Numbered from the stretch's first letter, positions 17,027-36,987 are shown. The stretch is DNA of 64,000 nucleotides from an uncultured Candidatus Rokubacteria bacterium (GCA_963805625.1 CAWDVE010000010.1:1600001-1664000), one strand, 5' to 3'. The notes: generated by a model not told the origin, from the letters alone. A program made the numbers and translations.

Positions 17027-17081
17027 CGGCGTGCGCGGGCCGAGCAGAGCTCCTCTCCGCGCGACGCCAGGAGGTCCCGCG

Positions 17082-18182
17082 ATGACCACGCCATACCGCG
17101 CCGATCAGGTCGGCAGCTTCCTCCGCCCAGCCGCACTCCTCCAGGCGCGGAGCGACCCCGCGACCCGGCCCGAGCACCTGCGAGAGCTGGAGGACCGGGC
17201 GATCCTCGAAGCCCTGACCCACCAGCGCGAGCTCGGGTTCGAGATCTTCACCGACGGGGAGCTCCGTCGCACGAACTTCATGAGCGACTTCTGGGACGCG
17301 GTGGCCGGCCTCGACCACGGCGACGCCGTCGCCCGGATGTGGCAGGTGGGCGGCACTGCATCGGCCCACGTGAGCAGCGTCACCGGCATCGTGACGCAGA
17401 AGCTGCGGCAGCTCCGACGGCTCACCGCGCACGAGCTCCCGTTCATGAAGCAGCACAGCCCCGGCGCGATCAAGGTCACCCTGCCCAGCGCGACCCAGTT
17501 CCCGGCGATCGCGTACAAGCGAGGCATCTCCGACCGCGTCTACGCGAGCCCCTCCGAGTTCCTCTGGGACGTCGTGGCGATCCTGAAGGCCGAGGTGCGG
17601 GCCCTCGTCGAGGAGGGCGTCTCGTACGTCCAGATCGATGCGCCGCGGTACAGCTACTACATGGACCCGAAGTGGCGCGACTGGATCCGCACCGAGATGG
17701 GGCAGGACCCGGACGCGGCGCTCGACGAGGCGGTCCGCGCGGACAACGCCTGCCTCGAAGGGGCGCGCCGGCCCGGCGTGACGCTGGCCATCCATCTCTG
17801 CCGCGGCAACAACCGGAGCCACTGGTATGCCGAGGGCGGCTACGACCCCATCGCCGAGAAGCTCTTCACCTCTCTCCAGGTGGACCGCTTCCTCCTCGAG
17901 TACGACGACGCACGCTCCGGGACCTTCGAGCCGCTCCGGTTCGTGCCCCGGGGGAAAGCGGTCGTGCTCGGCCTGGTCTCGAGCAAGCTGCCCGCGCTCG
18001 AGTCGCCCGCCGAGCTCCGCCAGCGCATCGAGGCCGCGGCGCGCCACGTCCCCCTGGACGACCTCGCGCTCTCGCCGCAGTGCGGCTTCGCCTCGACGAT
18101 GGAGGGCAATCTCCTCACTGAGGCCGACCAGTGGGCAAAGCTCGGCCTGGTCGTGCAGGTCGCCCGGAAGGTCTGGCGCTGA
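17082..18182 (+). CDS. Cobalamin-independent methionine synthase II family protein (MetE catalytic core only)
   Basis: RADQVGSFLRP, TDGELRR, QIDAP, Zn ligands HLCRGN / LEYD / SPQCGFAS; AGGAGG RBS. Confidence 0.9.
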   Translation: MTTPYRADQVGSFLRPAALLQARSDPATRPEHLRELEDRAILEALTHQRELGFEIFTDGELRRTNFMSDFWDAVAGLDHGDAVARMWQVGGTASAHVSSVTGIVTQKLRQLRRLTAHELPFMKQHSPGAIKVTLPSATQFPAIAYKRGISDRVYASPSEFLWDVVAILKAEVRALVEEGVSYVQIDAPRYSYYMDPKWRDWIRTEMGQDPDAALDEAVRADNACLEGARRPGVTLAIHLCRGNNRSHWYAEGGYDPIAEKLFTSLQVDRFLLEYDDARSGTFEPLRFVPRGKAVVLGLVSSKLPALESPAELRQRIEAAARHVPLDDLALSPQCGFASTMEGNLLTEADQWAKLGLVVQVARKVWR

Positions 18183-18355
18183 GCCGGCGCCCGGACAGTG
18201 ACGCCCGGAGACGCGGCGCGATCGGCGTGAGTGGCCTCCACGTTCGCGGGGCCCGGCGGGGAGCCCCTTCCCGCCATCGGGGCCTTGGTGCGAGGATGGA
18301 CGCGTAGGAGCCCATCGGGCTCCCGGGGGAGCCGCCTGACGCCGGCGCGACGACG

Positions 18356-19825
18356 ATGATCATCCACGTGAATCACATGGGACCCGGGGGATCCGGGCCC
18401 GCGGCCGTCGACGCGCGGGCCGCCGAGGTCGTCCGCACCCTCCTCGGGCTCGTCGCGGCCGGCCACGGGGATCCACGCCTCCTGCCAAGCCTCCGGGTCC
18501 ACCTGGACTGGATCCAGTACCGCGCCAACTTCCGCGAGCCGATCCTCGTCCGGCGGGCGGCCGACCGCTCCGGAGGACCGCTGGCGCTAGCGGAGCTCGC
18601 CGTGGATCTCCGCCGCGTCGACACTCACGCCCTGAGCGAGGCGCTCGCGCGGGCGCTCGGCGGAGTCGCCGACGCGCCGGAGAGCGGCCCGGACGGTGCG
18701 GCGGCTCTCGAGACGTGGACGCCCGTCCGCGACAGCGTGATCTGGCGGTTCAACCGGCTCTTCTGGCAGCGGGTCGCGGACTGGGAGGCCGCCTCGGGCC
18801 GCCGCTTCGAGGAGGCCCTCCCCAGCGGACGATCGGACGCCAGCCACCCCGAGGCGGTCGCGGACTCGGTCGCCGACTTCTGGACGCTCCTGCGCGACCT
18901 CGAGAAGAAGGGCCACCTCCCGCCCGAGATCTTCGCGCTCGAGATCGGCGTGGGCTCCGGCCAGCGCGCGGCGCTCTGGCTCGACCGGTTCCGCTCGCTC
19001 GACGAGGAGCGCGGGACGAGCTACTACCCTCGCCTCCGCTTCCTCCTGGGGGACTACTCCCTGCCCACCCTCGACCGGGCGATGGTCGCGGTCGCCGCGC
19101 ACCGGGACCTCGTGAGCGTGATCGCGCTCGACGCGCTCAACCCGCTCAAGACGCTCTCGTTCCTGCGCTACAAGATCCTCTCCATCCACCTCACGAACGT
19201 CTACGACAACCTGCCCCACGACGAGGTGGTGCGCCGCGACGGCCGGCTGTACCTGGTCGAGACCCGCGGGTACATGCCCCGCGACGCCGCGGCTCGCGTC
19301 GCCGCGATCGCCGGGTGCCCCGTCGGCGACCTCTCGCAGACCATCGAGCAGCTGCTCCGGGTCGGACCGGAGGCGCTCGGCGACCGCGCACGGGGCGTGG
19401 AGTTCTGGCGGGCCGCGTGGGACGCGCTGCGCCTGGAGGAGCGGCTGGTGGGGCTCGAGGACGTCTCCCAGGTGCCGCTGCCGCCGGGGCTCGATCAGAG
19501 CCATCTCGAGGACCTCCTGGCCGACGCGCCCGACGACGTGCGCTTTCACCTCTCGCGCGGCGCGGCCGAGAGCTTCGTCCACACCGTGCCGCTCCTGCAT
19601 CCGCGCGGATATCTGCAGGTGCAGGACATCTTCGTCGCCGACATGCACGAGTACCGGCAGGGGTTCCGGGGGCCAGGAAAGCTCGACGGCTCGGTGGTGA
19701 ACTGGGTCAACGGCGCCCTGCTGCGCGCCATCGGCGCGCGGACGGGGTTCGACGTGCACTTCGCGCCGTTCCGCTATCGCCCGGGGTCGCGGACGTCGAT
19801 CCTCTACACGACACCGCGTGAGTGA
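18356..19825 (+). CDS. Uncharacterised protein with MidA/NDUFAF7-like class I SAM methyltransferase fold
   Basis: FALEIGVGSG motif I, LLGDYS, LTNVYDNLP (cf. MidA NELFDALP); unassigned N-terminal ~110 aa. Confidence 0.65.
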   Translation: MIIHVNHMGPGGSGPAAVDARAAEVVRTLLGLVAAGHGDPRLLPSLRVHLDWIQYRANFREPILVRRAADRSGGPLALAELAVDLRRVDTHALSEALARALGGVADAPESGPDGAAALETWTPVRDSVIWRFNRLFWQRVADWEAASGRRFEEALPSGRSDASHPEAVADSVADFWTLLRDLEKKGHLPPEIFALEIGVGSGQRAALWLDRFRSLDEERGTSYYPRLRFLLGDYSLPTLDRAMVAVAAHRDLVSVIALDALNPLKTLSFLRYKILSIHLTNVYDNLPHDEVVRRDGRLYLVETRGYMPRDAAARVAAIAGCPVGDLSQTIEQLLRVGPEALGDRARGVEFWRAAWDALRLEERLVGLEDVSQVPLPPGLDQSHLEDLLADAPDDVRFHLSRGAAESFVHTVPLLHPRGYLQVQDIFVADMHEYRQGFRGPGKLDGSVVNWVNGALLRAIGARTGFDVHFAPFRYRPGSRTSILYTTPRE

Positions 19826-19837
19826 AAGGGGTCAGGT

Positions 19838-20893
19838 GTGACGTTGTCTTCGCCAGCGGACTCCCGGCATGGCCCCGCAGTCTCGAAGTCAAAGCCTGAC
19901 CCTCCCCTGCTCACCGCCGTTATCGGGAGCTACTCCATGTCCGGCTGGCTCGAGCGGGCCAAGAACGACTACCTCCACCGTCGCCTCTCCCGGCACGACC
20001 TCGAGGAGATCCACGACGCGGCGGTCAAGGCGGCGATCAAGGACCAGGAGGCGGCCGGGGTCGACATCGTCTCCGACGGGGAGCTGCGCCGGGACAACAT
20101 GATCGACCATTTCACGACGCGGCTGCCCGGCGTGCAGATCGACCAGACGTCGAAGAAGTTCTACTACGACTTCTACGACTGCGTGGTCCGGGGTCGGCTG
20201 CCGACCGGGTCGCTCGGCCTCGTCGAGGAGTTCCGGTTTCTCCGGCGCTTCACCGAGCACCGCACCAAGGTGTCCGTGACGGGGCCGCTCTCGCTCGTCA
20301 AGCGCATCCGGAACGAGTACTACCCGAGCGAGGAGGCGCTCGCCCTCGACATCGCGCGAGTCATGAACGTCGAGCTCCGCGAGCTGGTGCGCGCGGGCGC
20401 CACGGACATCCAGGTCGACGAGCCGTACTACTCGGGGTTCCCCGAGGACCTGTCCTGGGCGGTGCGGGCGCTCAACGCCCTCGTCGAGGGGGTGGGGGCG
20501 CGGCTGTCCCTCCACGTCTGCTACGGGAACCGATACGGGAAGCCGTCCTGGGAGGGCAGCTACCGCTACCTGTTCCCGGCGATCCTCGACGCCCGCATCC
20601 ACCAGCTGACGCTCGAGTTCGCCCGGCGGGGCGAGGACGACGTCCGGCTCTTCAAGGACTTCGACCCCCAGTTCACGCTCGGGCTCGGCGTCGTCGACGT
20701 CAAGAGCCACGACATCGAGACGCCGGCCGTCGTCGCCGAGCGCATTCGAGCCGCCCTCGAGCTCGTGCCCGCCAAGGGGCTCGCCGTCAACCCCGACTGC
20801 GGCCTGATGCACCTTCCGCGCGACGTCGCCTTCGCGAAGCTCAACGCGATGGTGGAGGGCACTCGACTCGTGCGGGCGGAGCTCGGCGCCTGA
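19838..20893 (+). CDS. Core (single-barrel) cobalamin-independent methionine synthase
   Basis: TAVIGSY, DIVSDGELRR, TGPLSL, IQVDEP, Zn ligands HVCYGN / LEFA / NPDCG. Confidence 0.88.
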   Translation: MTLSSPADSRHGPAVSKSKPDPPLLTAVIGSYSMSGWLERAKNDYLHRRLSRHDLEEIHDAAVKAAIKDQEAAGVDIVSDGELRRDNMIDHFTTRLPGVQIDQTSKKFYYDFYDCVVRGRLPTGSLGLVEEFRFLRRFTEHRTKVSVTGPLSLVKRIRNEYYPSEEALALDIARVMNVELRELVRAGATDIQVDEPYYSGFPEDLSWAVRALNALVEGVGARLSLHVCYGNRYGKPSWEGSYRYLFPAILDARIHQLTLEFARRGEDDVRLFKDFDPQFTLGLGVVDVKSHDIETPAVVAERIRAALELVPAKGLAVNPDCGLMHLPRDVAFAKLNAMVEGTRLVRAELGA

Positions 20894-20986
20894 GCCCACC
20901 CCCATCACAGGCAAGGGGCCGTCCGGTCAGAGCTGTGAGCCACACGCCGAAGGACGTCTGATCAACGAGTCGTCCGGCAGGGTGGC

Positions 20987-22540
20987 GTGGTGAGCCCCGC
21001 CCCGGCGACGCCCGGACCGCCCAACCCGCTCGCCGAGGCGCTCGGCTCCGGCCGCTTCTGCTACGTGGTCGAGCTGGTCGCCTCCGGGCTCCAGCGCGAG
21101 GCGAAGCTCCTCGAGGTGGCCTCGCGGCTGGCGCGGGTCCCGGATGTCGTCGCCGGCAGCATCACGAGCTACGCCGGCGGCGCGATGGGACACGATCCGA
21201 TGCGGGTGGGCACCGCCGCGCGGGCGCGGGGGCTCACGCCCAACGTCCACGTCACGTGCGTCGGACAGGACCGCGCGGGCATCCGGAAGACGCTGGAGGA
21301 CCTCCAGGCGCTCGGCATCGAGAACGTCTTCGCGCTCACCGGCGACTGGCCGCGGGCGCGGCCCGGCGGTCCCCCGCCCGAATCTCCCGTCTTCGACCTC
21401 GATTCCGTCCACCTGGTCCATCTGATCGACGAGCTGCGCCGGTCGGGCCGGCCCTTCCACGTCGCGGTCGCCGTGTCCCCGTTCAAGTACATGGAGGGCG
21501 ACTGCGTCTGGCAGTACGTGAAGCTCGAGAAGAAGGTCGCCGCCGGCGCCGACTGCGCGATCACGCAGGTGGGGTGGGACTCGGAGAAGTTCCGGGAGCT
21601 CAAGCGCTATCTCGAGGAGCGCGGTCTCCGGACCCCGGTGCTCGGCAACGTCTACGTCCTGGGTCCGCGCGCCGCCGAGCGGATGGCGCGAGGCGAGCCG
21701 CCGGGGTGCTGGGTGTCCCCGGAGCTTCTCCAGATCGTGCGGCAGGAAGCGCGGGGCAAGGACGGCGGGCTCCGGGCCCGCCTCGAGCGCGCCGCGCGCA
21801 CGGTCGCAGTGCTACGCGGGCTCGGGTACGCCGGCGCCTACCTCGGCGGCACGCACGACGCCGACCACGTCGCCTGGATCATCCGGCGAGCGCGGGACCT
21901 CGCGCCGAGGTGGGAGGAGCTGGCGGGGGAGCTCCGCTACGGCGCGGCGGGCGGCTTCTACCTCTACGGCCGGCCGCCGGCCCGGACCGTGGTCCCGGTG
22001 GACGGCGCTCGGCCGGCGTCGCCGGAGCCGGTCCCGGGCTCGAAGCGCCTGGCCGTCCCCACGGACGAGGAGGCAGCGTGGCGTCGCGGAATCGCCCGCC
22101 TGCTCGACGGCCTGGGCCGGCTGTTCCCGGTCACGCGAGATACGGTGCTCCGGCGGGTGCTCGCCGGCCTGGCCAGCTGGGCGGACCGACGTCCGGGCAT
22201 CGCTCAGGCCGTCGAGAAGCTCGAGCTGGCGGTCAAGCAGCCGCTCTTCGGGTGCCAGGCCTGCGGCAACTGCGTCCTGGGCCACCTCGAGTACGTGTGC
22301 CCGGAGACCTGCCCCAAGCACCTCCGGAACGGCCCCTGCGGCGGGACCTACCTCGGGCACTGCGAGGTGGTCGACCAGCCGTGTGTGTGGGTCGGCGTCC
22401 ACGCGCGCGCCCACGCCGCGGGTCGCGAGCGGGATCTCAGCGTCTACGTCCCGCCGCCTGACCGCACGCTCCGGGGCACCAGCTCCTGGATCAACTACCT
22501 CCTCGACCGCGACAGCCGTCCCCGCACGAAGCTTCTTTGA
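20987..22540 (+). CDS. metF: Methylenetetrahydrofolate reductase with C-terminal Cys-rich MTHFR_C (MetV-like) domain
   Basis: HVTCVGQDR, FALTGD, KLEKKVAAGADCAITQ; C-terminal CQACGNC..CPETCPKHLRNGPCGG..CEV..CVW. Confidence 0.85.
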   Translation: MVSPAPATPGPPNPLAEALGSGRFCYVVELVASGLQREAKLLEVASRLARVPDVVAGSITSYAGGAMGHDPMRVGTAARARGLTPNVHVTCVGQDRAGIRKTLEDLQALGIENVFALTGDWPRARPGGPPPESPVFDLDSVHLVHLIDELRRSGRPFHVAVAVSPFKYMEGDCVWQYVKLEKKVAAGADCAITQVGWDSEKFRELKRYLEERGLRTPVLGNVYVLGPRAAERMARGEPPGCWVSPELLQIVRQEARGKDGGLRARLERAARTVAVLRGLGYAGAYLGGTHDADHVAWIIRRARDLAPRWEELAGELRYGAAGGFYLYGRPPARTVVPVDGARPASPEPVPGSKRLAVPTDEEAAWRRGIARLLDGLGRLFPVTRDTVLRRVLAGLASWADRRPGIAQAVEKLELAVKQPLFGCQACGNCVLGHLEYVCPETCPKHLRNGPCGGTYLGHCEVVDQPCVWVGVHARAHAAGRERDLSVYVPPPDRTLRGTSSWINYLLDRDSRPRTKLL

Positions 22541-22552
22541 CGTGGAGGCGCG

Positions 22553-23260
22553 TCATTTGACGAACAGGGGGCTTCCGACCACAGTTACAGCCTCCGCGCG
22601 CGCCCTGGTCATGTCCGAGAAGGCCCTGTCGAGATCGGCGGGACCCCGCGCCTCAACGACTTGAAGTCGCACCCCCAGCGCCCGCGCCGCGACTTCTGCT
22701 TCCTTCAGCATGTCCTTCTCCGTGCGTTCGCCGGAGCCACCTGGCTGCCAGAGGACAGCAACCCGACTCACCCCCGGAACGGCCTGCCTGAGCAGGTCCA
22801 GAGACTTGCCGGGCAACCCCAGGGCGAGGTTGGACAACCCCGTGACATTGCCGCCCGGCCGCGCAAGGCTGGTGACGAGCCCGTCCGTAACCGGATCAAC
22901 AGCACCAGCGAAGACGATGGGGACGGTCCTGGTCGCGTGCTTGGCGGCCTGAGCGGCGACGGTACTTGGGGCCACAATGACATCAACCTCGAGGGCAACC
23001 AGTTCGGCTGCAAGAGCCGGGAGCCGCTCGGGCTTTCCCTCGGCATCTCGGTATTCGATCACGAGGTTGCGGCTCTCGACGTAGCCAAGGTCACGCAACC
23101 CTTGGACGAAGAAGGTCTCTAGCAGATCGCCACTAGCGGCCCGGTTTTGCGCCAGGACGCCGATTCGAGCGATCTTGGTCGCCCGCTGGGCCTCGACGGC
23201 AACTGGCGCCGCGAGGAGGCCGACACTCAGGGTGACGATGAGGATGAGTGAGGCCATCAT
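22553..23260 (-). pseudogene. ABC_sub_bind-type substrate-binding protein, C-terminally truncated
   Basis: GLRDLGYVE.RNLVIEYRDAEG, DPV..GLVTSLARPGGNVTG; ends at 235 aa just before the convergent metF end, lacking the usual last ~90 aa. Confidence 0.7.
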
Positions 23261-23520
23261 GGTTCCCCTCCGGTGCGATGCCGTGACGTCTCACCATAGC
23301 TCGGGTCCCCGCTGCCCAGCAGGCACGATTCCAGTCATCGCCCGGGAGGATTGATCTAGACTTCGGCGCGACGCGACGGCGCCGGGGGGAGCCCCCCGGG
23401 AACTTCAGCGTCTTGAACTGGGCCCACGAGAGCGGGGTGTCGTTGGAGACGTGAAGCCGGGCGCAGATCTTGGTCACGCCGAGGTCGTCCAGGAGTCTGT
23501 GGCCTCCCGGCGGGCTCGTG

Positions 23521-24612
23521 CTACGTCGCGCTACCGTCCTCGCCGACTTCCCGGGCGAACTCCCGCCGCTGCGCCTCTACCTCCGCCGGCCTCTCGGCGT
23601 AGACGTAGTCGAACATGTCGAGGGGGCGCGCCGCCTGCATGCGCGCCTCGGCGCGCTCGATGGCCGCGCGCACCTCGGCATCCACCTCCACCTCGAACCG
23701 GGCATGAAGCGCGTCATCGACGAGACCCTTCACCTCGAGATATCGGCGGAGGCGCGGGAGCGGCTCCCGCGCCTCCCACGCCTTGACCTCCGCCTCATCG
23801 CGGTACTTCTTCGGGTCGTCGGCCGTCGAGTGACCCGTCAGGCGGTACGTCACGGCCTCGATGAGCGTGGGCCCGCCGCCTTCGCGGGCGCGCGCCACCG
23901 CCTCGCGCGTGACCGCCACCATGGCCAGGAGGTCGTTCCCGTCCGCCTGCACGCCCGGGAAGCCGTAGGCGAGCGCGCGGTGCGCGAGCGTCCTCGCGCG
24001 AGTCTGCCGCGACCGCGGCATGGAGATCGCCCACTGATTATTGACGCACACGAAGACGATGGGCGCCTGGAAGACGCCCGCGAAGTTCATGGCCTCCTGG
24101 GTGATCCCCTCGGAGCTGGCCCCGTCGCCGAAGTAGCAGAGCACGACGCTGTCCTCCCGCCGGGCCCGGGCGGCACACGCCAGCCCGACCGCGTGAGGGA
24201 CGTGAGTGCCCATCGGAACGCAGACTGGGAGATCCCGGATGCCGGCGGGAACGGAAGTACCCTCCGTCAGACCCGCGTAGAGGAGGATGAGGTTCTCGAG
24301 CGGCCAGCCCCGCCAGACATAGGCGGCCCACTCGCGCCAGACGGGAACGAGCCAGTCGGTCGCGCGCAGAGGGTAGACGCTGCCGAGCACCGCAGCCTCG
24401 TGCCCGCGGGCCGGCAGGTAGGTGCCGATCCGGCCCTGTCGCTGGAGGAAGAGCATGCGCTCGTCGAACCGGCGCGCGAGGAGAAAGGTGCGGTAGAGCC
24501 GTCGCAGGTCGTCGGGGGGAATCAGCGGCTCGAGGTCACGGTCCAGCCGCCCCTCCTCGTCGAGGATCGAGAGGGCGTCGATCGGATCGAGGTCGATACG
24601 CTGGCGCGGCAT
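23521..24612 (-). CDS. pdhA: 2-oxoacid (pyruvate) dehydrogenase E1 alpha subunit
   Basis: LQRQGRIGTY, TPP motif GDGASSEG..NNQWAIS, DGND, TYRLTGHSTADDP. Confidence 0.88.
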   Translation of the reverse strand: MPRQRIDLDPIDALSILDEEGRLDRDLEPLIPPDDLRRLYRTFLLARRFDERMLFLQRQGRIGTYLPARGHEAAVLGSVYPLRATDWLVPVWREWAAYVWRGWPLENLILLYAGLTEGTSVPAGIRDLPVCVPMGTHVPHAVGLACAARARREDSVVLCYFGDGASSEGITQEAMNFAGVFQAPIVFVCVNNQWAISMPRSRQTRARTLAHRALAYGFPGVQADGNDLLAMVAVTREAVARAREGGGPTLIEAVTYRLTGHSTADDPKKYRDEAEVKAWEAREPLPRLRRYLEVKGLVDDALHARFEVEVDAEVRAAIERAEARMQAARPLDMFDYVYAERPAEVEAQRREFAREVGEDGSAT

Positions 24613-24615
24613 GCT

Positions 24616-25464
24616 CTACGGCTCGACGGGTACGTCGTCGCGACCACCCCACTCGGTCCAGGACCCGTCGTAGACGGCGACGTCCGGCCGGCCGACGAGA
24701 TCGAGCCCGAGGGCGAGGACGCAGGCCGTCACCCCGGAGCCGCACGACGTCACGATGGGCCGGTCGAGATCGACACGGGCCGCCTCGAACACCCTGCGGA
24801 GGTCGTCCCGCGGGAGCAACGTCCCGTCCGGCCGGAAGAGCCGATCGTAGGGCACGTTCAGGCTCCCGGGGATGTGCCCCCCGCGGAGGCCGGGACGCGG
24901 TTCGGGCTCGGTCCCCGCGAAGCGGCCGGCCGATCGGGCGTCCACGACCTGCGCGAGCCCTGTCGTGAGGTTTCTGCGCACGCCATCGAGGTCGGTCACC
25001 AGCTCTGGATGGAGGCGCGGCGTGAAGTGGCGGCGCACCGGGCTCGGCTCTCCCGCCTCGACAGGCCGGCCCTCCTCCCGCCATCGTGGGAAGCCACCGT
25101 CGAGGATGGCCACGCGCTCGTGTCCAAACACGCGGAAGGTCCACCACACGCGCGCCGAGGCGGACAGGTACTTCCCGGCGTAGACGACCACCCGGTCACC
25201 ATCACCGATCCCCAGGGCACCCACCGCCTGACCGAATGTGACCGCATCGGGCAGCATGTGGGGGAGCCCTGACGTCCGATCGGAGATCGCGTCGATGTCG
25301 AAGTAGACGGCGCCGGGGACGTGGGCCTGGCCGAACTCCGACCGCGCGTCGCGCTTGAGGGTGGGCAGGTACCAGGTCGCGTCAACGACCCGGAGGCCCG
25401 CCTCGCCGAGGTGCTCGGCGAGCCACGCCGTGCTCACCAGCGGGCCAAAGCTCGCGTCCATCAT
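24616..25464 (-). CDS. sseA: 3-mercaptopyruvate sulfurtransferase (tandem rhodanese)
   Basis: HVPGAVYFDID, LPHMLP, RVWW, RGGHIPGS, active site CGSGVTAC, YDGSWTEW. Confidence 0.92.
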   Translation of the reverse strand: MMDASFGPLVSTAWLAEHLGEAGLRVVDATWYLPTLKRDARSEFGQAHVPGAVYFDIDAISDRTSGLPHMLPDAVTFGQAVGALGIGDGDRVVVYAGKYLSASARVWWTFRVFGHERVAILDGGFPRWREEGRPVEAGEPSPVRRHFTPRLHPELVTDLDGVRRNLTTGLAQVVDARSAGRFAGTEPEPRPGLRGGHIPGSLNVPYDRLFRPDGTLLPRDDLRRVFEAARVDLDRPIVTSCGSGVTACVLALGLDLVGRPDVAVYDGSWTEWGGRDDVPVEP

Positions 25465-25561
25465 GGTCTACGTTTCCCGGCACGACGGGTCACGGTTCGA
25501 TTATGGCACGCTGCGCGGGTGCACCGGGGTTCCCGCGAGGCCGACGCGGACAACGGCAGCC

Positions 25562-26236
25562 CTACTCGGCCGGCTCGGCGTGGAGCAGGCCTCCAAACAT
25601 CCGGCGACCCAGCTCGAACGCCTCGGCGAGAACGAGCCCCGCCCCGTCACCGTCCGGCGTGTCGCGGCGCCACTCCGCGAGCTCCTCTTCCGACCGGAAG
25701 AAGTTGAGGCGGGTTCAGAGGAAGCTCGAGAGCCGGTCGCCACCCCATCGGCTCCGCTCGACCCACGTGAGGCTTCCGGAGGGCGCCCGGCAGGGACCGG
25801 CCACCGGATCGACGTCGAAGACCAGTGGCGCACCGCTCCGGTGGCAGCGCGACCGGAGCGTCACCGGGCTCCCCACCATCGGCGCCACGCCGAGGGCGTC
25901 GATCGCACAGCACGCGTAGCGCGCCCGGCCACCAGGAAGCACCACCTCGAAGTCGTTCCGCTCGGCGGTGAACGGGTACGCGAGCGTGACCTGGTCTCCG
26001 TCCAGCCCGATCAGGTCCGCGGCATCAAGCGCCGCCGCTCGCGCCCGGAGAGCTTCCGGCGTGAGTCCCGGGATGGCCCGCGACGCCGCCTCGAGGGCAA
26101 CCGGTCCGCCGGCCGCGACGAACTCCCGCCAGATGGCCCGGAGCAGCGGATCATCCCGTTGCGCCCGCCGAGCCGCCCACTCCCCCGCCCGCTCGGGCGT
26201 GAGGATCTCGGCAGCGGTCCGGATCTCGACTCTCAC
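25562..26236 (-). CDS. MerB-like organomercurial/organometallic lyase; probable selenoprotein
   Basis: AYPF..YACCAIDALG..SRCHRSG, then SSFL-TGA(25715-25717)-TRLNFFRSEEELAEW..EAFELGRRMFGGLL to TAG at 25562; GTGA overlap with anti-sigma stop. Confidence 0.82.
25684..25703 (-). promoter_or_regulatory. Putative bacterial SECIS hairpin
   Basis: mRNA CUUCUUCC-GGUC-GGAAGAGG, 8-bp stem starting 11 nt after UGA, GGU in loop; CCGC/GCGG can form a lower stem. Confidence 0.7.
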
Positions 26237-27864
26237 GCCCCCGAGCTTCGCACGGCTCCCACCGCCCGGGCGAGCCGCCCGGCGAGCGCTCCGGCGCCGA
26301 GGCACGCCACGGCGACCCAGATCGGGCCTCCCACGAGAGGCAGGGCCGTCGCGAGCGTGACGAGGACCAGGCCGACCACCAGCGCCCGCAGCGCATCGCG
26401 CCGCGGGTTGCCGCGCGGCCGGAGCAACGCCCGCCCGAGGGCGAGGGCGACCACGATCTTGGCCGCGTAGAGACCCAGGAGGTAGAGCCCCAGGAGGACG
26501 AGCGCGAGCGGCAGGCCGACAAGGGTCACGGCGAGGAGCAGGATCAGGACGGGGCCCCCGACGAGGGTTGCCACGCCCCACCCGAGGGATCGCTTCCAGC
26601 TCCGCACCCCGTCGGCGCTCCCCACGACCAGCCCGGGCACGAGCAGGAGCCCCGCCCAGCCGAGGAGCGCCGCACCGAAGAAGCTCGTCGCCGCCCAGAA
26701 CCATACGCGCGGCTCGCCGTACCACCCGGCACCGCGCGATGCCACGCGCGTGAGCACGGGGCCCGTCACGGTCGCCCCGCCGTCGACGGTCACGGCGGAC
26801 GGCCGGACGACGTCGGCCCGGACCGTTCCCTGGAGACGCGCCGGCGCCCGCACCGCGAGCCGGTCGCCACGGAAGCGGACGTCCCGGCCGACGCGACCGC
26901 TCACCTCGGCTTCGTGGGCCAGAATCGTCACGCCGCGTCCGATCTCACCGCCGAGCGACAGACTCCGGCCGACCAGCGTGAGGTCGCCCCCGACGCTTCC
27001 CCCGGGCTCGATCACCGTCGTGCGATCGGCGGCGTAAAGCCCCCGGCCGACGCGGCCGCGGAGGATCAAGGAGCCGGCGGCGACATACACGCTGCCCTCC
27101 ACCCTGCCGGCCACCTCCACCATCCGGGCCACGACCACGAGGTCGCCACGCACCGTCCCTCGCACGTCGACGTGCGCCGCGGCGACGATCAGATCGCCAT
27201 CGATCGTCCCGTCGACGCGGACGTTCTCGGCGGCGGCGACCAGCGTCCCGTCGAGCGTCTCGCTCACCCCGATCGCCACGTCCCTCCCGCTTCGTGTCTC
27301 GAGCGCGTCGACGGGTGACGGGGCAAGCCCCGCGGCCACTCCGAGGGTCAGCGCGAGCGCCGCGACCGCGCGCGAGGGAGTCCGCCCGAGATAGAGCCCG
27401 CCGGCAAGCGCCAGCCCCATCATCGTAGCGACCGCCAGGGTCGTGAGCGCCCGCTCCAGCGCGACGGCATTCGTCACGACGAAGAGGGCGCCCTCCACGG
27501 CGAGGCCGATCCAGTCACCCATCGGCCGGCCCGGAAGGTCTCCCCATCCGGCGAGGCGCGCAAGGCCCCCGGCGCCCGCCAGCACGGCCAGGGTGAGCCC
27601 CCACGCGCCGGCCCGACGCCCGTTCGTCGCCACGCCCAGGCGTCCGAGGATCGACGCGGGCCTCACCGCGCCCACGGGCGACGGCGCGAGGGCCGTCTGC
27701 TCGCCGAGTGCCGCGCTGAGCATCCGGTTCTCGTCCCGGAGCGCCGCGACCAGCGCCCGGCAGCGCGGACACTCAGCCAAGTGAACTTCGGTGGCCCGCG
27801 TCTCCTCCGGGGACAGCTCCCCGTCCGCGTACACCGCACAGGTGAGCTCGTTCAGGCACGTCAT
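26233..27864 (-). CDS. Zinc-finger (zf-HC2) anti-sigma factor with bactofilin-like beta-helix domain and multiple TM helices
   Basis: YADGEL..HLAECPRC (HxxxCxxC); repeats VDGTIDGDL/VRGTVRGDL/VAGRVEGSV; C-terminal TLVGLPLAL TM bundle. Confidence 0.82.
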   Translation of the reverse strand: MTCLNELTCAVYADGELSPEETRATEVHLAECPRCRALVAALRDENRMLSAALGEQTALAPSPVGAVRPASILGRLGVATNGRRAGAWGLTLAVLAGAGGLARLAGWGDLPGRPMGDWIGLAVEGALFVVTNAVALERALTTLAVATMMGLALAGGLYLGRTPSRAVAALALTLGVAAGLAPSPVDALETRSGRDVAIGVSETLDGTLVAAAENVRVDGTIDGDLIVAAAHVDVRGTVRGDLVVVARMVEVAGRVEGSVYVAAGSLILRGRVGRGLYAADRTTVIEPGGSVGGDLTLVGRSLSLGGEIGRGVTILAHEAEVSGRVGRDVRFRGDRLAVRAPARLQGTVRADVVRPSAVTVDGGATVTGPVLTRVASRGAGWYGEPRVWFWAATSFFGAALLGWAGLLLVPGLVVGSADGVRSWKRSLGWGVATLVGGPVLILLLAVTLVGLPLALVLLGLYLLGLYAAKIVVALALGRALLRPRGNPRRDALRALVVGLVLVTLATALPLVGGPIWVAVACLGAGALAGRLARAVGAVRSSGA

Positions 27865-27866
27865 CG

Positions 27867-28439
27867 TCAAGCCCTCTCATCCAGATCCGCGAGCAGCCGG
27901 CGCAGGACCTGCTTGCCGCGGAAGATCAGGATCGCCACGTGGTTGCGCGTCACTCCGAGCTGGCTCGCGATCTCCTCGTAGCCCAGCTCGCCGTAGTAGC
28001 GGAGAGCCAGCGAGACCCGGTACCGCTCGGGGAGACGCTGAAGGGCGGCGCGCACCCGCTCCTGCCCCTCGTCGGTCAGCACCGCCGCGAGAGGCGACGG
28101 TCCGGACTCGCTTCCCGTCGACGCGCCGTCGGTCTCGTCCCACTCCGCGGCGAACAGCCGGGATTCGAGACGGCGGCGCCGCAGCACGTCGAGGCAGTGG
28201 TGGCTCGTCACGCTCAGGAGCCAGCGGTCGAACGGGAGCGCCGGGTCGTACCGATCGATCGCGCGCGGCAGGCGGAGGAAGACGTCGCTCCGGGCGTCCT
28301 CGGCCGCATCCGGAGAGCCGAGGAGGTGGCGGCAGAGACCGAGCACGCGCCGGCCGAATTCCTGGTAGAGCTCGGCGAAGCCCTCCTGCTCACCGCGCCG
28401 GGCGCGCTCGACGGCCTCCGCCACCTCGATTGCGTTCAT
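27867..28439 (-). CDS. ECF RNA polymerase sigma factor
   Basis: AEDARSDVFL, FDRWLLSVTSHHCLD (region 2), LPERYR..GYEEIASQLG (region 4). Confidence 0.93.
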   Translation of the reverse strand: MNAIEVAEAVERARRGEQEGFAELYQEFGRRVLGLCRHLLGSPDAAEDARSDVFLRLPRAIDRYDPALPFDRWLLSVTSHHCLDVLRRRRLESRLFAAEWDETDGASTGSESGPSPLAAVLTDEGQERVRAALQRLPERYRVSLALRYYGELGYEEIASQLGVTRNHVAILIFRGKQVLRRLLADLDERA

Positions 28440-28456
28440 GGCCCTCCGACGAGTCC

Positions 28457-28482
28457 TACGAACCGACGCCCCCGGAGTTACA
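28457..28482 (-). promoter_or_regulatory. Putative ECF-dependent autoregulatory promoter
   Basis: Minus strand TGTAAC-N16-CGTA, 17 nt upstream of sigma ATG; fits AAC/CGT ECF consensus. Confidence 0.65.
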
Positions 28483-28535
28483 TCGCGCTCCGCCGCCCCG
28501 GTCCTCCCCCGCCCGCCGGCATCGGGCTCCCCGGA

Positions 28536-28561
28536 CGTAACGGGGCGGATGCTCGTCCGTA
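28536..28561 (+). promoter_or_regulatory. Putative ECF-dependent promoter of divergent desaturase operon
   Basis: CGTAAC-N16-CGTA on plus strand, same motif and spacing as the sigma promoter. Confidence 0.62.
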
Positions 28562-28619
28562 TTACTTTCCGAACCGCCCAACAAGGAACGAACTGGCCAA
28601 GTGGGAGGAGGAGACGCTC

Positions 28620-29447
28620 ATGTCAATCGAACGCATCCTGACGGACTACGGAGAGCCGCTGCAATACATCATCTATTTCGGCCTCTTGGCTGGACTGGGG
28701 GTGATGGAGGCCCTCGCGCCCCGCCGCGGTAACCCGGCGGGCCGCGGGCGGCGGTGGCCGTCGAATTTCGGGCTGACGGCGCTCAACATCGTGGTGCTGG
28801 GAGCCCTGCCGGTGAGCGGCCTGGCGGTGGCCGTCATCGCCCAGCAGCAGGGCTGGGGGCTCCTCCAGCGGTACCCCTTGTCTCTCGCCGCCACGCTGGG
28901 AGTGGCGCTCCTTGCGCGGAGCCTCGTCTCGTACGCGGTCCACGTGGCCATGCACAAGGTACCGGCCCTGTGGCGCGTGCATCGCGTCCACCACACGGAC
29001 GTCTTCATGGACGTGTCGACGACCGTCCGGTTCCATCCGCTGGAGTTCCTGATCCAGCTCGGGCCGACAGCCCTCGTCATCCTCGGGCTCGGCCTGCCGC
29101 CGTGGACCATCATGCTCTACGAGCTGGTCGACACGGCCACCAACCTGTTCATCCACGCGAACGCCCGGATGCCGGGCCGTCTCGACGCCTGGCTGCGCCT
29201 GCTCCTGGTCACCCCCGACATGCACCGGGTCCATCACTCGGCCCTCTGGCCCGAGACGGACTCTAACTACGGGGTGGTCGTGCCATGGTGGGATCGGCTC
29301 TTCGGCACCTACCGCGAGACCGTTGGTGACCCCCGGGAGACCCGGCTCGGGCTCGAGGAGTGCCAGGACCGGCGGGCGTCGTCCCTCGGCTGGCTCCTCG
29401 CGCTGCCGTTCCGGGGACGCCTGGAGCACCTGGCGGAGCGCTCCTGA
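28620..29447 (+). CDS. Sterol desaturase / fatty acid hydroxylase family protein
   Basis: His boxes HVAMH, HRVHH, FIHAN, HRVHH; SNYG..WDRLFGT; GGAGGAG RBS. Confidence 0.9.
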   Translation: MSIERILTDYGEPLQYIIYFGLLAGLGVMEALAPRRGNPAGRGRRWPSNFGLTALNIVVLGALPVSGLAVAVIAQQQGWGLLQRYPLSLAATLGVALLARSLVSYAVHVAMHKVPALWRVHRVHHTDVFMDVSTTVRFHPLEFLIQLGPTALVILGLGLPPWTIMLYELVDTATNLFIHANARMPGRLDAWLRLLLVTPDMHRVHHSALWPETDSNYGVVVPWWDRLFGTYRETVGDPRETRLGLEECQDRRASSLGWLLALPFRGRLEHLAERS

Positions 29448-29493
29448 GATGCGCCCGCAATCGACACCCCGTCACGCGACGTCGGGTCCCGAC

Positions 29494-30015
29494 ATGCTCC
29501 CTGACTCGAACGCTCGTGGGGCTGCGTCCACCGCGACGGGCGCCGCCCCTGACCATCCCAGCGTTATCGCGAGGCCGCCCCGGATCGCGTACCTGTTCCT
29601 CGGGATCGGGGCGATCCTGGGGTGGCTCTGGCCTCTCCCCCTTCTGCCGACAGGCTCGCCGGCGGCACTCCGCTTCGGCGGCGGCGGGGGGCTCGTCGTC
29701 CTCGGCCTGGTCGTCATGACCCTGGCGGTCCGCGCCTTCCGGGACGCGGGAACGAACGTCGAGACGCCGAAGCCGGCGATCGCGCTCGTGACCGGCGGGA
29801 TCTACGCCCGCTCGCGGAATCCGATGTACGTCGCCCTCGCGCTCCTCTTCGCGGGCATCGCCCTGCTCGCCGACAGCGGCTGGCTCGCGCTGCTCCTCGT
29901 ACCCTACGTCGCCGTGCTCCGGATCGGGGTGATCGCGCAGGAAGAGCGCTACCTCGAGCGGAAGTTCGGCGCGCCCTACCGTGTCTATCGGGCCCACGTC
30001 CGGCGATGGCTCTGA
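29494..30015 (+). CDS. Isoprenylcysteine carboxyl methyltransferase / PEMT family membrane protein
   Basis: LVTGGIYARSRNPMY, EERYLERKFGAPY..VRRWL; start uncertain (29449 or 29494). Confidence 0.85.
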   Translation: MLPDSNARGAASTATGAAPDHPSVIARPPRIAYLFLGIGAILGWLWPLPLLPTGSPAALRFGGGGGLVVLGLVVMTLAVRAFRDAGTNVETPKPAIALVTGGIYARSRNPMYVALALLFAGIALLADSGWLALLLVPYVAVLRIGVIAQEERYLERKFGAPYRVYRAHVRRWL

Positions 30016-30046
30016 GCGGCGCGGGCAGGACTAGAATGAGAGGGCG

Positions 30047-30511
30047 ATGCGCGAGTACCGCTACCGGGTCGACACCGAGGGCCGGGTCTTCCACGACGGG
30101 AGCGAGGTTCTCGACCCCCTGACGCTCCGCTTCTTTCTGCGCGCCATGACCCGCACACCCGAGGGAGGCTGGCTCGTGGTGTGCCAGGGTGAACGGAACT
30201 GGTTCGAGTCCGAGGGGACCCCCTTCGTCGTTCAACGGCTCCGACCCGTCCTCCGTGAGGGGGTGCTGGACGGTCTCGAGCTCGTCCTGGCCGGCGACCA
30301 CCGGGAGCCACTCGACCCGGCCACGCTCGAGAGCGAGGGGGGGCGGCTCTACTGCCGGGTCCGGCGCGGCGCGTTCCCGGCGCGGTTCAGCCGCCTCGCG
30401 CTCCAGCAGCTCGGCGCGCACCTCAGGGACGAGAACGGACGGCCCGCCCTCGTCCTGGGTGGGCGCCGCCATACCATCGTCGATCGCGAAAGGACTCCCG
30501 AGCTCACATGA
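30047..30511 (+). CDS. Hypothetical protein, DUF1285-like
   Basis: YRVDTEGRVFHDG, EGTPFVV, LYCRVRRG..ARFSR pattern. Confidence 0.6.
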   Translation: MREYRYRVDTEGRVFHDGSEVLDPLTLRFFLRAMTRTPEGGWLVVCQGERNWFESEGTPFVVQRLRPVLREGVLDGLELVLAGDHREPLDPATLESEGGRLYCRVRRGAFPARFSRLALQQLGAHLRDENGRPALVLGGRRHTIVDRERTPELT

Positions 30512-30610
30512 CGGACACATTGACCGACCCTGGCGACCCCGGCACCCCAGGCTATCCCCGAGCGCGGTAAGAAGGCGCGGACGGCGGGCGAGCCCTCACC
30601 CCCCGCCCGT

Positions 30611-31306
30611 GTGATGAGCATCCACGCCCACCCGGACGACCAGGAGTTCACCGTCGGCGGCACCCTGGCCAAGTGGGCGCGGGTAGGCACCGCCATCGTC
30701 ACCGTGTGCATCACGCGCGGCACCGGCGGATCGAACCGCTTCACGCCGCCGGACATGACCCGGGAGGCCCTCGGACCGATCCGCGAGGTCGAGCAACGAA
30801 GCGCGTGCCGGGTCCTCGGGATCGCGGACACGTGGTTCCTCGACTACGAGGACGGGATGCTCGAGGCCACCATCGCGCTCCGCCGGGACCTCACCCGCTT
30901 GATCCGGCGCTTCCGGCCCGACGCGGTCGTGTGCGGCGACCCCACCGTCCGCTACTACGGCTCCACGTACCTGAACCACCCCGACCACCGGGCGGCCGCC
31001 GACGCCGCACTCGATGCGGTCTTCCCTTCCGCCGGCACGCGGCTGATCTTCCCGGAGCTGCTCGCCGAGGGGCTCGAGCCCCACGAGGTCCGCCAGGTGT
31101 ACATCCACGGGGCCGAGCGGCCCGACACCTACGTCGACATCGCCGGCACGCTCGACGTCAAGCTGGCCGCCCTCCGCGAGCACCGGAGCCAGATGGGCGA
31201 GTGGGACCCCAAGGAGTTCCTCGTGGAGTGGGCGCGCGAGCAGGGCGTCAAGGTGGGCCTCGAGGCGGCGGAGGCCTATCGGCGGATGGTGCTGGAGGGG
31301 CCCTAG
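30611..31306 (+). CDS. PIG-L/LmbE family deacetylase
   Basis: AHPDDQE, REVEQRSA, HPDH, HRSQ; true start may lie slightly upstream. Confidence 0.9.
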   Translation: MMSIHAHPDDQEFTVGGTLAKWARVGTAIVTVCITRGTGGSNRFTPPDMTREALGPIREVEQRSACRVLGIADTWFLDYEDGMLEATIALRRDLTRLIRRFRPDAVVCGDPTVRYYGSTYLNHPDHRAAADAALDAVFPSAGTRLIFPELLAEGLEPHEVRQVYIHGAERPDTYVDIAGTLDVKLAALREHRSQMGEWDPKEFLVEWAREQGVKVGLEAAEAYRRMVLEGP

Positions 31307-31356
31307 GGGGACCCGCCGGCCGGCCCCTGGCGAGCCCGCCCGGAGCCGGCCGCCCC

Positions 31357-32430
31357 TCACCCGGTCGCGGGACCTTCCAGCACCAGGACCGCCTCCCGGG
31401 GAAAGCTCACCGTCACCGTCTGCCCCGGCTGGGGCGGGGGCGTGTTTGGGGTGTTGAAGGTGTCGAGCGACACCGCGTTCTCTCGAAATCGCACGCGAAT
31501 CCGCACGATCGACCCCAGGAAGTTGACGTCCTCCACGGTGCCCTGCATCCGGTTCCCGTCACCCGCCGGCTCGTGGAGGGACACGATCTCGGGGCGCAGG
31601 GCCACCGAGCGCACCTCGCCGACCCGCGCGCCCGCCAGGCCTTGCGAGGCCAGGATCTCCTGCCCGTCGATCGCGATCGCGCCGCGCCCGGGGTCCACCA
31701 CCTGCCCCCGCAGGATGCTGAGGGTGCCGACGAAGGACGCCACGAAGCCCGTTCGCGGAAAGTTGTAGATCTCGAACGGGGTGCCGATCTGCTCGATCCG
31801 TCCGTCCCGCATCACGACGATCCGGTCCGACAGGGACAGGGCCTCCTCCTGGTCGTGCGTGACGTAGATCGTGGTGATCCCCAGCTTCCGCTGGATGGCG
31901 CGGATCTCGTTCCGCAGGGACACGCGGATCTTCGCGTCGAGGGCCGACAGGGGTTCGTCGAGCAGCAGCACCTTCGGCTGGATCGCGAGGGCGCGCGCCA
32001 GCGCCACACGCTGCTGCTGGCCGCCCGAGAGCTGGTACGGATAGCGGCTCCCGAGCGCCGGCAGCTTGATGAGCTCCAGCATCTCCTGAACCCGGGGACC
32101 GATCTCCGCACTCGGCTTCCTGGCCACCTTCAGCCCGAAGCCCACGTTGTCGGCGACGGTCATGTTCGGGAACAGCGCGTAGGACTGGAACACCATCCCG
32201 ACGTTGCGCCGGTTTGGGGGGCGCCGGGTGATGTCCACCCCGTCGATCCGAATCGCGCCTGCGGAGGGAGTCTCGAAGCCCGCGATCATCCTGAGCGTCG
32301 TCGTCTTCCCGCAGCCGCTCGGCCCCAGGAAGGACACGAACTCGCCCCGCGCGACGTCCAGCTCGAAGTGCTCGACCGCCGTCGAGAGCGCGAACTTCTT
32401 CTGCAGGCCATGGATCTCCAGCAAGCCCAT
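31357..32430 (-). CDS. ABC transporter ATP-binding protein (PotA-like, TOBE domain)
   Basis: GPSGCGKTT, VFQSYALFP, LSGGQQQRVALARA, VTHDQEEA. Confidence 0.95.
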   Translation of the reverse strand: MGLLEIHGLQKKFALSTAVEHFELDVARGEFVSFLGPSGCGKTTTLRMIAGFETPSAGAIRIDGVDITRRPPNRRNVGMVFQSYALFPNMTVADNVGFGLKVARKPSAEIGPRVQEMLELIKLPALGSRYPYQLSGGQQQRVALARALAIQPKVLLLDEPLSALDAKIRVSLRNEIRAIQRKLGITTIYVTHDQEEALSLSDRIVVMRDGRIEQIGTPFEIYNFPRTGFVASFVGTLSILRGQVVDPGRGAIAIDGQEILASQGLAGARVGEVRSVALRPEIVSLHEPAGDGNRMQGTVEDVNFLGSIVRIRVRFRENAVSLDTFNTPNTPPPQPGQTVTVSFPREAVLVLEGPATG

Positions 32431-36666: not shown

Positions 36667-36987
36667 GGTTGCGGCACCGTTGCGCTCGCTTCGAGCTCCG
36701 CGGCGTGGACCAGGGGGTCGCCGAGCGCCTGGTCGAGGCCTGGCGGGCGCGCCGACCCCTACCGCACCGTCGTGGCAGCGACCACCATGACGATCGAGGT
36801 GACCGGCCAGCCGGCTTGACGCCTTCGCGCGGCCGAATCGGTGCGCGCTACCCGGCCCGACAGTCCCTTCCACCCCCAAATCCGCAAGATCGCAGGCTTC
36901 CGCACGGCGGTGTCGGGAAAACCACGCATGCGTGGGGGCTTTCACTGCTACGCCTCGTCGCGCCCGAGACGTACGCTGGCGCGAAAC

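Follow-up and report, generated by a model that had tools for sequence, protein, structure and literature searches.

A predicted autoregulated ECF switch with a possibly two-part zinc-binding anti-sigma factor in a Candidatus Rokubacteria genome

RESULTS

Genes and features of the locus

We describe here a locus at positions 23,521 to 31,306 of a 64,000-nucleotide stretch from an uncultured Candidatus Rokubacteria bacterium (GCA_963805625.1 CAWDVE010000010.1:1600001-1664000), in which the genes for a sigma factor of the extracytoplasmic function (ECF) type and its putative zinc-binding anti-sigma (ZAS) factor lie between a divergent pair of membrane-enzyme genes and a predicted selenocysteine (Sec) MerB-like gene (Table 1). 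The whole 64-kb stretch, referred to as the window, belongs to contig C10 of a 7.27-Mb genome labeled G000; other G-labels denote genomes, and L-labels denote fetched loci. Family profile searches bore out the gene order and families that an earlier note on this sequence had described, save for the DUF1285 label and the start of the PIG-L gene. In the reading that we consider probable, the pair is a SigW/RsiW-type envelope-stress switch that controls its own expression; only its own operon and the divergent fah-pemt pair are predicted direct targets, and it is set amid older genes. These older flanking genes (merB, sseA-pdhA, and the DUF1285-like and PIG-L genes) likely keep sigma-70-type promoters, as judged from conserved elements upstream of them.

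Table 1. Features of the locus, in window coordinates
Feature	Position	Strand	Basis
Pyruvate dehydrogenase E1-alpha paralog (pdhA), 363 aa	23521..24612	-	TIGR03181 416 bits, cutoff 411
sseA, 3-mercaptopyruvate sulfurtransferase, 282 aa	24616..25464	-	NF008557 282 bits, cutoff 250
GTGAC-N16-CGTA string before sseA	25469..25493	-	Judged a chance match
CGTGCCATAAT, predicted sigma-70-type extended -10 of sseA-pdhA	25500..25510	-	CGTGYCATAAT in 10/10 upstream regions
MerB-like gene (merB), 224 aa, UGA read as Sec174	25562..26236	-	Translation and alignment
SECIS (Sec insertion sequence)-like stem-loop, CTTCTTCC-GGTC-GGAAGAGG	25684..25703	-	Starts 14 nt past first base of the UGA
In-frame UGA, predicted selenocysteine	25715..25717	-	TGA in 59/66 and Cys in 7/66 scored loci
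Anti-sigma factor, 543 aa	26233..27864	-	Pfam zf-HC2 and Bactofilin
GTGCGAAGCT, predicted extended -10 of a near-leaderless merB promoter	26244..26253	-	14/14 loci
Internal signal-peptide-like segment, R161 to V-D-A187	27304..27384	-	Predicted signal peptidase I site
ECF sigma factor, 190 aa	27867..28439	-	Pfam Sigma70_r2 and r4_2
Predicted autoregulatory ECF promoter, GTAAC-N16-CGTA	28457..28481	-	Conservation, matrix rank 1
Predicted divergent ECF promoter, GTAAC-N16-CGTA, facing fah-pemt	28537..28561	+	Conservation, matrix rank 2
Fatty acid hydroxylase/sterol desaturase family membrane enzyme (fah), 275 aa	28620..29447	+	PF04116, E 7e-30
PEMT/ICMT-family membrane methyltransferase (pemt), 173 aa	29494..30015	+	PF04191
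TAGAAT, predicted sigma-70-type -10, 9 nt before the DUF1285-like ATG	30032..30037	+	14/14 loci
DUF1285-like protein (duf), 154 aa, weak family assignment	30047..30511	+	ESM Atlas features
PIG-L family deacetylase	30508..31306	+	PF02585; start overlaps upstream stop

Conservation of the two predicted ECF promoters

The earlier note had proposed two back-to-back promoters of the form GTAAC-N16-CGTA. Both sites are present and conserved, and the coordinates first given for them were one base too long. The exact motif matches twice in the window, against 0.09 matches expected. Genome wide, it is not enriched: the scan returned 8 exact matches at N16, against a range of 1 to 9 over spacers of 8 to 30. 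Conservation therefore had to decide the promoter question. The ECF sigma factor was found in 13 of 61 genomes searched, and the promoter footprint was taken from 13 ortholog loci of 12 relatives. Of these 13 loci, 12 carry a WAA[CG]-N16/17-CGTA element oriented toward the sigma factor gene and 11 carry one oriented toward the divergent gene. The exceptions are G004, which has a deletion of the module, and G024, in which the contig stops 139 nt upstream. The strict motif gave no match in the flanks over 432 kb of strand-bases. In other genera, the -35 element reads GAAAC (TGAAAC-N16/17-CGTA in G019 and G024), and the GTAAC form is that of the window's genus. A matrix trained on 18 sites from relatives (G000 excluded; L031 omitted, being scored as a miss in the footprint) ranks the window sites first (29.3 bits) and second (24.6 bits) in the whole genome. 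Of 75 metagenome loci with the sigma/anti-sigma pair, 64 carry a self-promoter of the form G[TAC]AA[CTG]-N16/17-CGTA, compared with 13 of 2,449 control windows. Taken together, conservation, matrix ranks, and the metagenome self-promoters uphold both the autoregulatory and the divergent ECF promoter.

Apart from one ambiguous site, no distal regulon emerged from the motif scans. Within the genus, the motif count rose above a reversed-pattern control only in G010 (by 2), and in G006 the forward count equaled the control. The ambiguous site, near position 1243663 on the minus strand of contig C10, is a GTAAC-N15/16-CGTA string kept in G000, G009, and G004 within a divergent intergenic region (L258 and L259). 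It overlaps a -10-like hexamer (TAGGAT/TACGAT) and persists in G004, which has lost the ECF; the site may therefore belong to another promoter.

Four of the eight exact genome matches sit in a block of ~50% GC that opens contig C10. This block spans positions 1 to 140000, compared with 70% GC elsewhere, with a gradual rise at 140 to 144 kb, and is either a foreign island or a chimeric join.

Architecture of the anti-sigma factor

The assignment of the second gene as a ZAS/bactofilin anti-sigma factor was confirmed by its zf-HC2 and Bactofilin matches. The protein carries ZAS residues C3 and H28xxxC32xxC35, followed by N-terminal membrane helices, an internal signal-like segment, a beta-helix (residues ~188 to 374), and a C-terminal bundle of membrane helices; hydropathy analysis gives eight hydrophobic segments. 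A whole-protein fold search retrieved nothing at E<=0.001, with weak beta-helix and ZAS matches only. In a search of 50%-identity representatives, many homologues stop near profile position 172.

What is new here is the internal signal-peptidase-like site. In this segment, basic residues are accompanied by a hydrophobic core and a helix breaker, positions -3 and -1 are taken by small residues (an AxA site), and the first beta-strand directly follows. Small residues occupy both positions in all 71 ZAS-fused orthologs, at identities down to ~30%; in the same alignment, only 2 of 523 columns reach 100% on this small-residue rule. Moreover, the segment aligns with the N-terminal signal peptides of seven stand-alone beta-helix proteins. 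A nested gene was rejected as its origin, since no ribosome-binding site and start are conserved in the 71 sequences (scattered candidates occur in 13). We infer from these features that signal peptidase cuts the anti-sigma factor at A187. Signal peptidase reportedly acts as the site-1 protease of RsiP, the anti-sigma factor of sigma-P. It likewise serves as site-1 protease of RsiV, the anti-sigma factor of sigma-V, in the available portion of PMC4183432, a likeness that for the window protein consists of the motif; RsiV binds lysozyme, whereas in the window protein the predicted site falls at the junction of a ZAS-membrane half with a membrane-anchored beta-helix half.

Alternatively, the segment could be a gene-fusion relic that persists as an uncleaved helix, leaving a polytopic anti-sigma factor regulated by other proteases in the manner of RsiW. 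The small-residue rule can be obeyed by any Ala-, Gly-, and Ser-rich alignment, and 9 of the 523 columns here attain at least 90%; cleavage is deduced here from sequence. However, the site recurs without exception in the 71 orthologs, after a basic and hydrophobic stretch and before the first beta-strand, and the remaining high-scoring columns fall in the beta-helix or the C-terminal helices. We retain this alternative with some weight, as a doubtful one.

The earlier note had also suggested thiol sensing through the HxxxCxxC motif, for which we found no support. RsiW, the closest architecture, is reported to be insensitive to thiol oxidants, and HxxxCxxC alone does not predict sensitivity of the RsrA type, in which thiol oxidation releases the sigma factor, according to the available portion of PMC3177212. 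Membrane anchoring of the ZAS protein, its outer domain, and the reported redox insensitivity of RsiW speak for a signal from the envelope and not for thiol stress.

Spread of the sigma/anti-sigma pair and its neighbors

The best-scoring named sigma factor model is SigW NF007223, at 96.6 bits and below its cutoff of 209. A search of 251 genomes from the phylum detected the anti-sigma factor, at E<=1e-30, in 13. A more distant sample comprised 80 metagenome loci, mostly of 54 to 67% GC; given this GC content, they probably represent other lineages (one protein match named Acidobacteria). The anti-sigma gene comes next after the ECF gene in 72 of 74 of them. Further comparisons used distant loci under 70% GC. 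There, a divergent promoter was present in 2 of 68. None of the 37 loci with 3 kb of downstream sequence had merB or sseA, and none of the 44 with 1.2 kb of upstream sequence had pemt or fah. No neighbor family recurred widely, the largest shared cluster spanning three metagenome loci.

Within Rokubacteria, pemt is the common divergent gene and the most conserved ECF cargo, being found in the window's genus, G016, and G019, although not in G001 and G005. The fah gene is confined to the window's genus and is missing from G002. The proposed linkage of the ECF to lipid genes is therefore borne out in part: it extends to three genera for pemt and one for fah, and to none of the 44 distant loci. 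Synteny of merB and fah with the ECF fails beyond the genus. These counts leave the ECF/anti-sigma pair, with lineage-limited fah and pemt, as the conserved unit.

Three genomes of the sample have lost parts of the module. G003 (98% complete, on a 4-Mb contig) lacks the sigma factor, anti-sigma factor, fah, and pemt, and its duf and merB genes stand head to head; G011 and G004 carry deletions across the ECF module. All three retain merB, sseA, pdhA, duf, and PIG-L. In G003 (L098:8391-8534), a GTAAC faces duf, with CGCC where CGTA is expected. This may be a decayed divergent promoter, which would make G003 a case of loss rather than the ancestral state.

Some loci depart from the window in other ways. 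In G016 and G019 (L029:4495-6854 and L030:4732-7100), a VIT1-family protein and an AMP-binding enzyme, not merB, follow the anti-sigma factor. The two full locus copies in G009 (L020 and L024, with 89% and 82% ECF identity to the window) suggest that its bin is mixed. A contig titled Actinomycetota (L071) bears the whole locus at 72 to 95% identity in most genes, with many frameshifts, and is probably a misbinned Rokubacteria contig.

Possible coupling of merB to the ECF operon

The merB GTG start overlaps the anti-sigma TGA, and the earlier note, which recorded the overlap, had placed merB behind the ECF promoter. The element GTGCGAAGCT, which lies within the final codons of the anti-sigma gene, precedes merB in all 14 loci, including that of G003, where no anti-sigma gene is present; it stands 7 nt from the GTG in 12. 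The arrangement recurs in merB copies of other genera that are not accompanied by the ECF (GTGCGATACT in L154 and L104). Near-leaderless promoters of this sort appear to be common in the genome, given that TANNNT peaks 6 to 9 nt before ATG (31, 22, 26, and 35 of 1,624 starts, compared with ~7 elsewhere). The TAGAAT before duf falls inside this leaderless peak, and it too is kept in 14 of 14 loci, three of which have lost the ECF promoters. Since their own elements are kept in G003, G011, and G004, merB and the DUF1285-like gene appear not to need the ECF.

This evidence bears on a genus-level co-option, in which merB would be a selected member of the ECF operon, such that envelope stress raises the Sec enzyme, with sseA-pdhA separate. 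Among the 13 loci with the 3' end of the anti-sigma gene, 11 preserve the stop/start overlap, a count that fits coupling. A consensus scan found no terminator between the two genes, and merB is adjacent in all nine genus relative loci with a full-length ECF match. One distant merB locus, in addition, has a fah homolog within 3.5 kb. With no terminator and the overlap so often kept, co-induction of merB by read-through is likely. On the other hand, G003 retains both the upstream element and the GTGA junction with no anti-sigma gene before merB, so that the overlap is partly automatic. The three genomes that lost the ECF or its promoters still keep merB, its UGA, and its hairpin. This anti-sigma gene was not found near any of 52 merB loci away from the window-type locus, nor merB near the distant ECF pairs. 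As a dedicated target of the ECF, merB is not supported, and we consider the co-option unlikely.

The sseA-pdhA pair and the proposed single regulon

A one-mismatch copy of the motif before sseA had been read as a third ECF promoter. This GTGAC-N16-CGTA string ends 4 nt before the sseA ATG and, among 10 upstream regions, is shared by G000 and its 97% identical relative G013 alone. It scores 3.5 bits in G000 and 8.1 in G013, and below zero in the other 7 of 8 ortholog loci. The CGTGYCATAAT element, which we take to be a sigma-70-type extended -10, is instead conserved in 10 of 10 sseA upstream regions despite their variable lengths and flanks. As its 3.5 bits compare with 29.3 and 24.6 at the two ECF sites, as it is not conserved, and as a different element is conserved in its place, the string was rejected as an ECF site and judged a chance match. 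By these tests, the E1-alpha gene at the locus is not an ECF target either. It is a lone paralog; a 68.5% identical E1-alpha at G000:C17:924497 heads a gene run with E1-beta-, E2-, and E3-like open reading frames (labels read from translations).

A single ECF regulon that joins organometal cleavage, sulfur transfer, and membrane remodeling against lipophilic organometals or electrophiles, sensed by the ZAS thiols, was the interpretation offered in the earlier note. In its favor, the genes form one unbroken run in the window, as most do in genus relatives. The one-mismatch motif does precede sseA in G000 and G013, and SigF of C. crescentus, a heavy-metal ECF sigma factor, uses a GTAACC-CGTA promoter (available portion of PMC7826278). 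Against it stand the unconserved sseA string and the different element conserved in its place. The distant ECF pairs carry none of the cargo, and fah or pemt is singly lost in several relatives. The SigF (ECF16) anti-sigma factor is a six-helix DUF1109 protein with periplasmic cysteines, as described in the same portion of PMC7826278, an architecture from which the window protein differs (no DUF1109 match at E<=0.1). RsiW-type membrane ZAS proteins, moreover, are reported to be redox insensitive in the portion of PMC3177212 cited above. We regard an integrated organometal or electrophile program as improbable.

The predicted Sec-MerB protein

For scoring of the UGA site, 67 loci were submitted and 66 scored (L173 was dropped for want of a motif match). 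Four loci, L035, L040, L042, and L061, were left out of alignment A1 because of a frameshift, a run-on frame, or a contig end. The site is TGA in 59 and Cys in 7. The downstream hairpin has a mean of -7.8 kcal/mol in the 59 Sec loci and -1.9 kcal/mol in the 7 Cys loci, and its codons are constrained among the Sec loci (CGG in 57, TCG in 57, and GAA in 50, where GAA makes up 8.9% of Glu codons in G000). Residues C110, D113, and C131 do not vary among the 26 sequences aligned and match C96, D99, and C117, the signature residues of MerB (available portion of PMC8261052). The structure model superposes on MerB chains at TM (template modeling) scores of 0.65 to 0.68, with a Foldseek E value of 1e-11; the MerB equivalog score is 55.9 bits, below the cutoff of 193. 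The UGA count, SECIS-like stem, and MerB fold sustain the earlier proposal of a Sec-MerB, and the protein is very probably a selenoenzyme with a predicted C110/D113/U174 site. Its predicted activity is most likely protonolysis of a metal-carbon bond.

The Sec machinery was checked for selA, selB, and tRNA-Sec. In G000, selA and tRNA-Sec are present, and selB (L003:92-2004, on contig C21) is frameshifted ~190 codons in; the shift is probably an assembly error, given that selB scores over its cutoff in 5 of 5 relatives (full length in 3). Despite this frameshift and a database record that mostly ends the protein at the UGA, a true stop or pseudogene lesion is hardly credible in view of the same-site UGA in 59 loci, Cys in 7, the conserved downstream frame, the synonymously constrained hairpin that Cys forms have lost, and the selA, tRNA-Sec, and relatives' selB.

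Compared with MerB proper (PDB entries 3f0o, 3f2g, and 1s6l; PF03243), the window protein shares the fold and the invariant equivalents of C96, D99, and C117, and the position aligned to within one residue with C159 holds Sec (Cys in 7 of 66 homologues); it differs in having Sec at this second metal ligand, in an identity of ~24%, and in scores below the NF009710 and NF033555 cutoffs. MerB-like selenoproteins are already in print as SaoL (NF040728). In the available portion of bioRxiv 10.1101/2022.07.06.499078, SaoL resembles the window protein in having Sec at the Cys159 position, ~50 residues from the C terminus, and in being truncated in databases. Identity with SaoL was ruled out, as SaoL has a CU motif where the window protein has LU, the latter scores 38.4 bits on NF040728 (cutoff, 140), and its neighbors are the anti-sigma gene and sseA instead of the nine-gene SAO locus.

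In the phylum, a Sec-MerB profile matched 105 of 251 genomes, among which more distant Cys forms are also counted. Among the 52 merB loci away from the window-type locus, which are a convenience sample, merR/T/P/E/F-like genes lie within 3.5 kb in 20 (23 when glutaredoxin or zinc-ribbon partners are included), a MerA-like reductase in 4, and a fah homolog in 1; the anti-sigma factor, sseA, pemt, and E1-alpha were found in 0 of 52 over the same distance. Several of the partners carry in-frame UGA codons of their own, namely a UxxU MerP-like protein, a UxxC glutaredoxin, a CxxU zinc ribbon, and a CxxxxU reductase. Sec MerP/MerT-like proteins are listed in reviews and NCBIfam, and Haft and Gwadz, in the available part of their work, found no selenoprotein in mercury resistance, against which the 20 of 52 copies beside mer genes may be set. 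In the main text of PMC12013277 and PMC13326102, MerB is not mentioned. Database homologues are mostly called to residue ~173, among the 120 matches listed; with Sec-MerB thus cut short, surveys requiring the Cys159 signature would miss the family.

Mer-like clusters with multiple UGA codons occur at L101:4917-9260, L102:6177-11793, and L103:5500-10300, and also in L138, L144, L148, L158, and L176. They hold Sec-MerB, UxxU MerP/MerTP, a UxxC glutaredoxin, a CxxU zinc ribbon, merR, merE, merF, and Cys-MerB, and their CxxxxU flavoprotein reductase is without the C-terminal Cys pair. No mer genes accompany merB at the window locus. In G000 as a whole, the best MerA score is 390 (cutoff, 454), with no match for merR, merE, or merF. 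The same genome has a Sec flavoprotein reductase (G000:C14:196684-198012) that is 76% identical to that of the mer-like cluster in G017, as well as two Sec glutaredoxins (G000:C13:454803-455030 and G000:C10:725102-725326) away from merB. These dispersed proteins are possible partners of the lyase.

Comparison with known ECF groups

The comparisons in this section draw on the available portion of PMC7826278. ECF245, which contains B. subtilis SigW/RsiW, resembles the window system in having a ZAS anti-sigma factor at +1 with a membrane anchor and an extracytoplasmic bactofilin, as well as in its predicted autoregulation; SigW also affects membrane fluidity. The ECF245 promoter (TGAAAC/CGTAT) is matched by G019 and G024, and the window has a TAAC variant. 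The ECF245 anti-sigma factor, however, has one transmembrane helix, whereas that of the window has more N-terminal helices, an internal signal, and a C-terminal bundle. ECF245 is also limited to Bacillales in a disA/ybbR/glmM context, unlike the Rokubacteria/Methylomirabilota locus, with merB/sseA/pdhA downstream. The switch probably works like SigW/RsiW, yet it fails ECF245 on helix number, context, and taxon.

In ECF247 (Chloroflexi), a two-helix anti-sigma factor at +1 is followed by a bactofilin at +2, and the window anti-sigma factor resembles both fused. Compared by description, it keeps the signal peptide of the second ECF247 gene within the fusion; two genes in ECF247 correspond to one fused frame in 71 ZAS-bearing loci. 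Promoters of ECF247 are reported not to be conserved, in contrast to those of the window. We found no paper on an ECF/zinc-binding anti-sigma/bactofilin system of this kind in the literature searched, which covered the PMC7826278 supplement in part.

Proposed mechanism and its weighing

In the envelope-stress switch that we favor, the ZAS domain would hold the sigma factor at the membrane. A cut at A187 would separate the ZAS-membrane inhibitor half from a sensor half made of the beta-helix and membrane bundle, the fused counterpart of the two-gene ECF247 layout. An envelope signal would then lead to proteolysis of the inhibitor half, and the freed sigma factor would transcribe (G/T)TAAC-N16/17-CGTA promoters and amplify its own operon. 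The output would be a membrane oxygenase and a membrane methyltransferase, probably lipid altering. As no terminator was found, read-through would probably raise merB and DUF1285-like/PIG-L mRNA as well, as a by-product of position.

Several points weigh against this reading, in addition to the stop/start overlap and the selB frameshift described above. The promoters and start sites are predictions, and a consensus promoter and terminator scan of positions 23000 to 32000 returned no sigma-70 promoter (one weak hairpin only, over the plus-strand ECF site). For merB, no -35 element was identified, the GAAGCT of its element departs from TANNNT at the first base, and in G008 and L071 the element lies ~60 nt from the start. 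The genus loci are close kin and not independent, and RNA run X1 (share 0.08) contributes low-depth contigs only, which are silent on starts, strand, and level. The case for signal-peptidase cleavage consists of a motif and an alignment, and the anti-sigma structure model (predicted local distance difference test [pLDDT] score, 79.8) has low confidence at residues 59 to 120 and 180 to 186. That fah and pemt probably alter a lipid follows from family names, which are also the source of their presumed substrates. In the MerB-like protein, U174 falls on MerB C159 by the count from the FF motif and on C159 or C160 by pairwise alignment, and the loop before U174 is modeled at a pLDDT below 50.

If this envelope-stress switch is correct, the proposed eight-gene regulon is trimmed to a two-promoter module, and a precise promoter consensus is gained for an ECF/anti-sigma pair that many contigs from soil and sediment carry. 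The conserved internal site, in turn, suggests a two-piece anti-sigma design. A bolder extension, which we offer tentatively and hold to be unlikely as a whole, is an unclassified cross-lineage ECF group whose precursor is split into a paired inhibitor and sensor and which, in one genus, is wired by read-through to a Sec organometal lyase. The inhibitor and the beta-helix sensor would then stay paired until envelope damage parts them, and membrane stress would prearm the cell against lipid-soluble organometals with a lyase taken from selenoprotein-rich mer clusters.

Other genes at the locus and in the window

Against the OlsE model, fah scores 74 bits (cutoff, 475). The DUF1285 label of the next gene but one is only partly sustained: ESM Atlas features speak for it (feature 0.95; recognition value 2174, under the 2300 mark), and no Pfam DUF1285 match was obtained at E<=0.1. 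A paralog of this protein lies at G000:C10:471585. For the PIG-L gene, alignment with 13 relatives places the true start at 30508, although the frame is open from 30611; the N-terminal extension (30508-30611) is out of frame by one extra base relative to the 13 relatives, probably through an assembly error.

Elsewhere in the window, positions 17031-22540 hold a methionine cluster, conserved in the genus, with two genes for cobalamin-independent methionine synthase catalytic domains, a 489-aa open reading frame without a Pfam match, and an MTHFR (methylenetetrahydrofolate reductase) gene with DUF5981. Upstream of a choline-kinase-like gene and an ABC transporter, positions 36940-39873 encode a membrane protein of 978 aa in which a PMT_2-like region is combined with an F5/8 type C domain.

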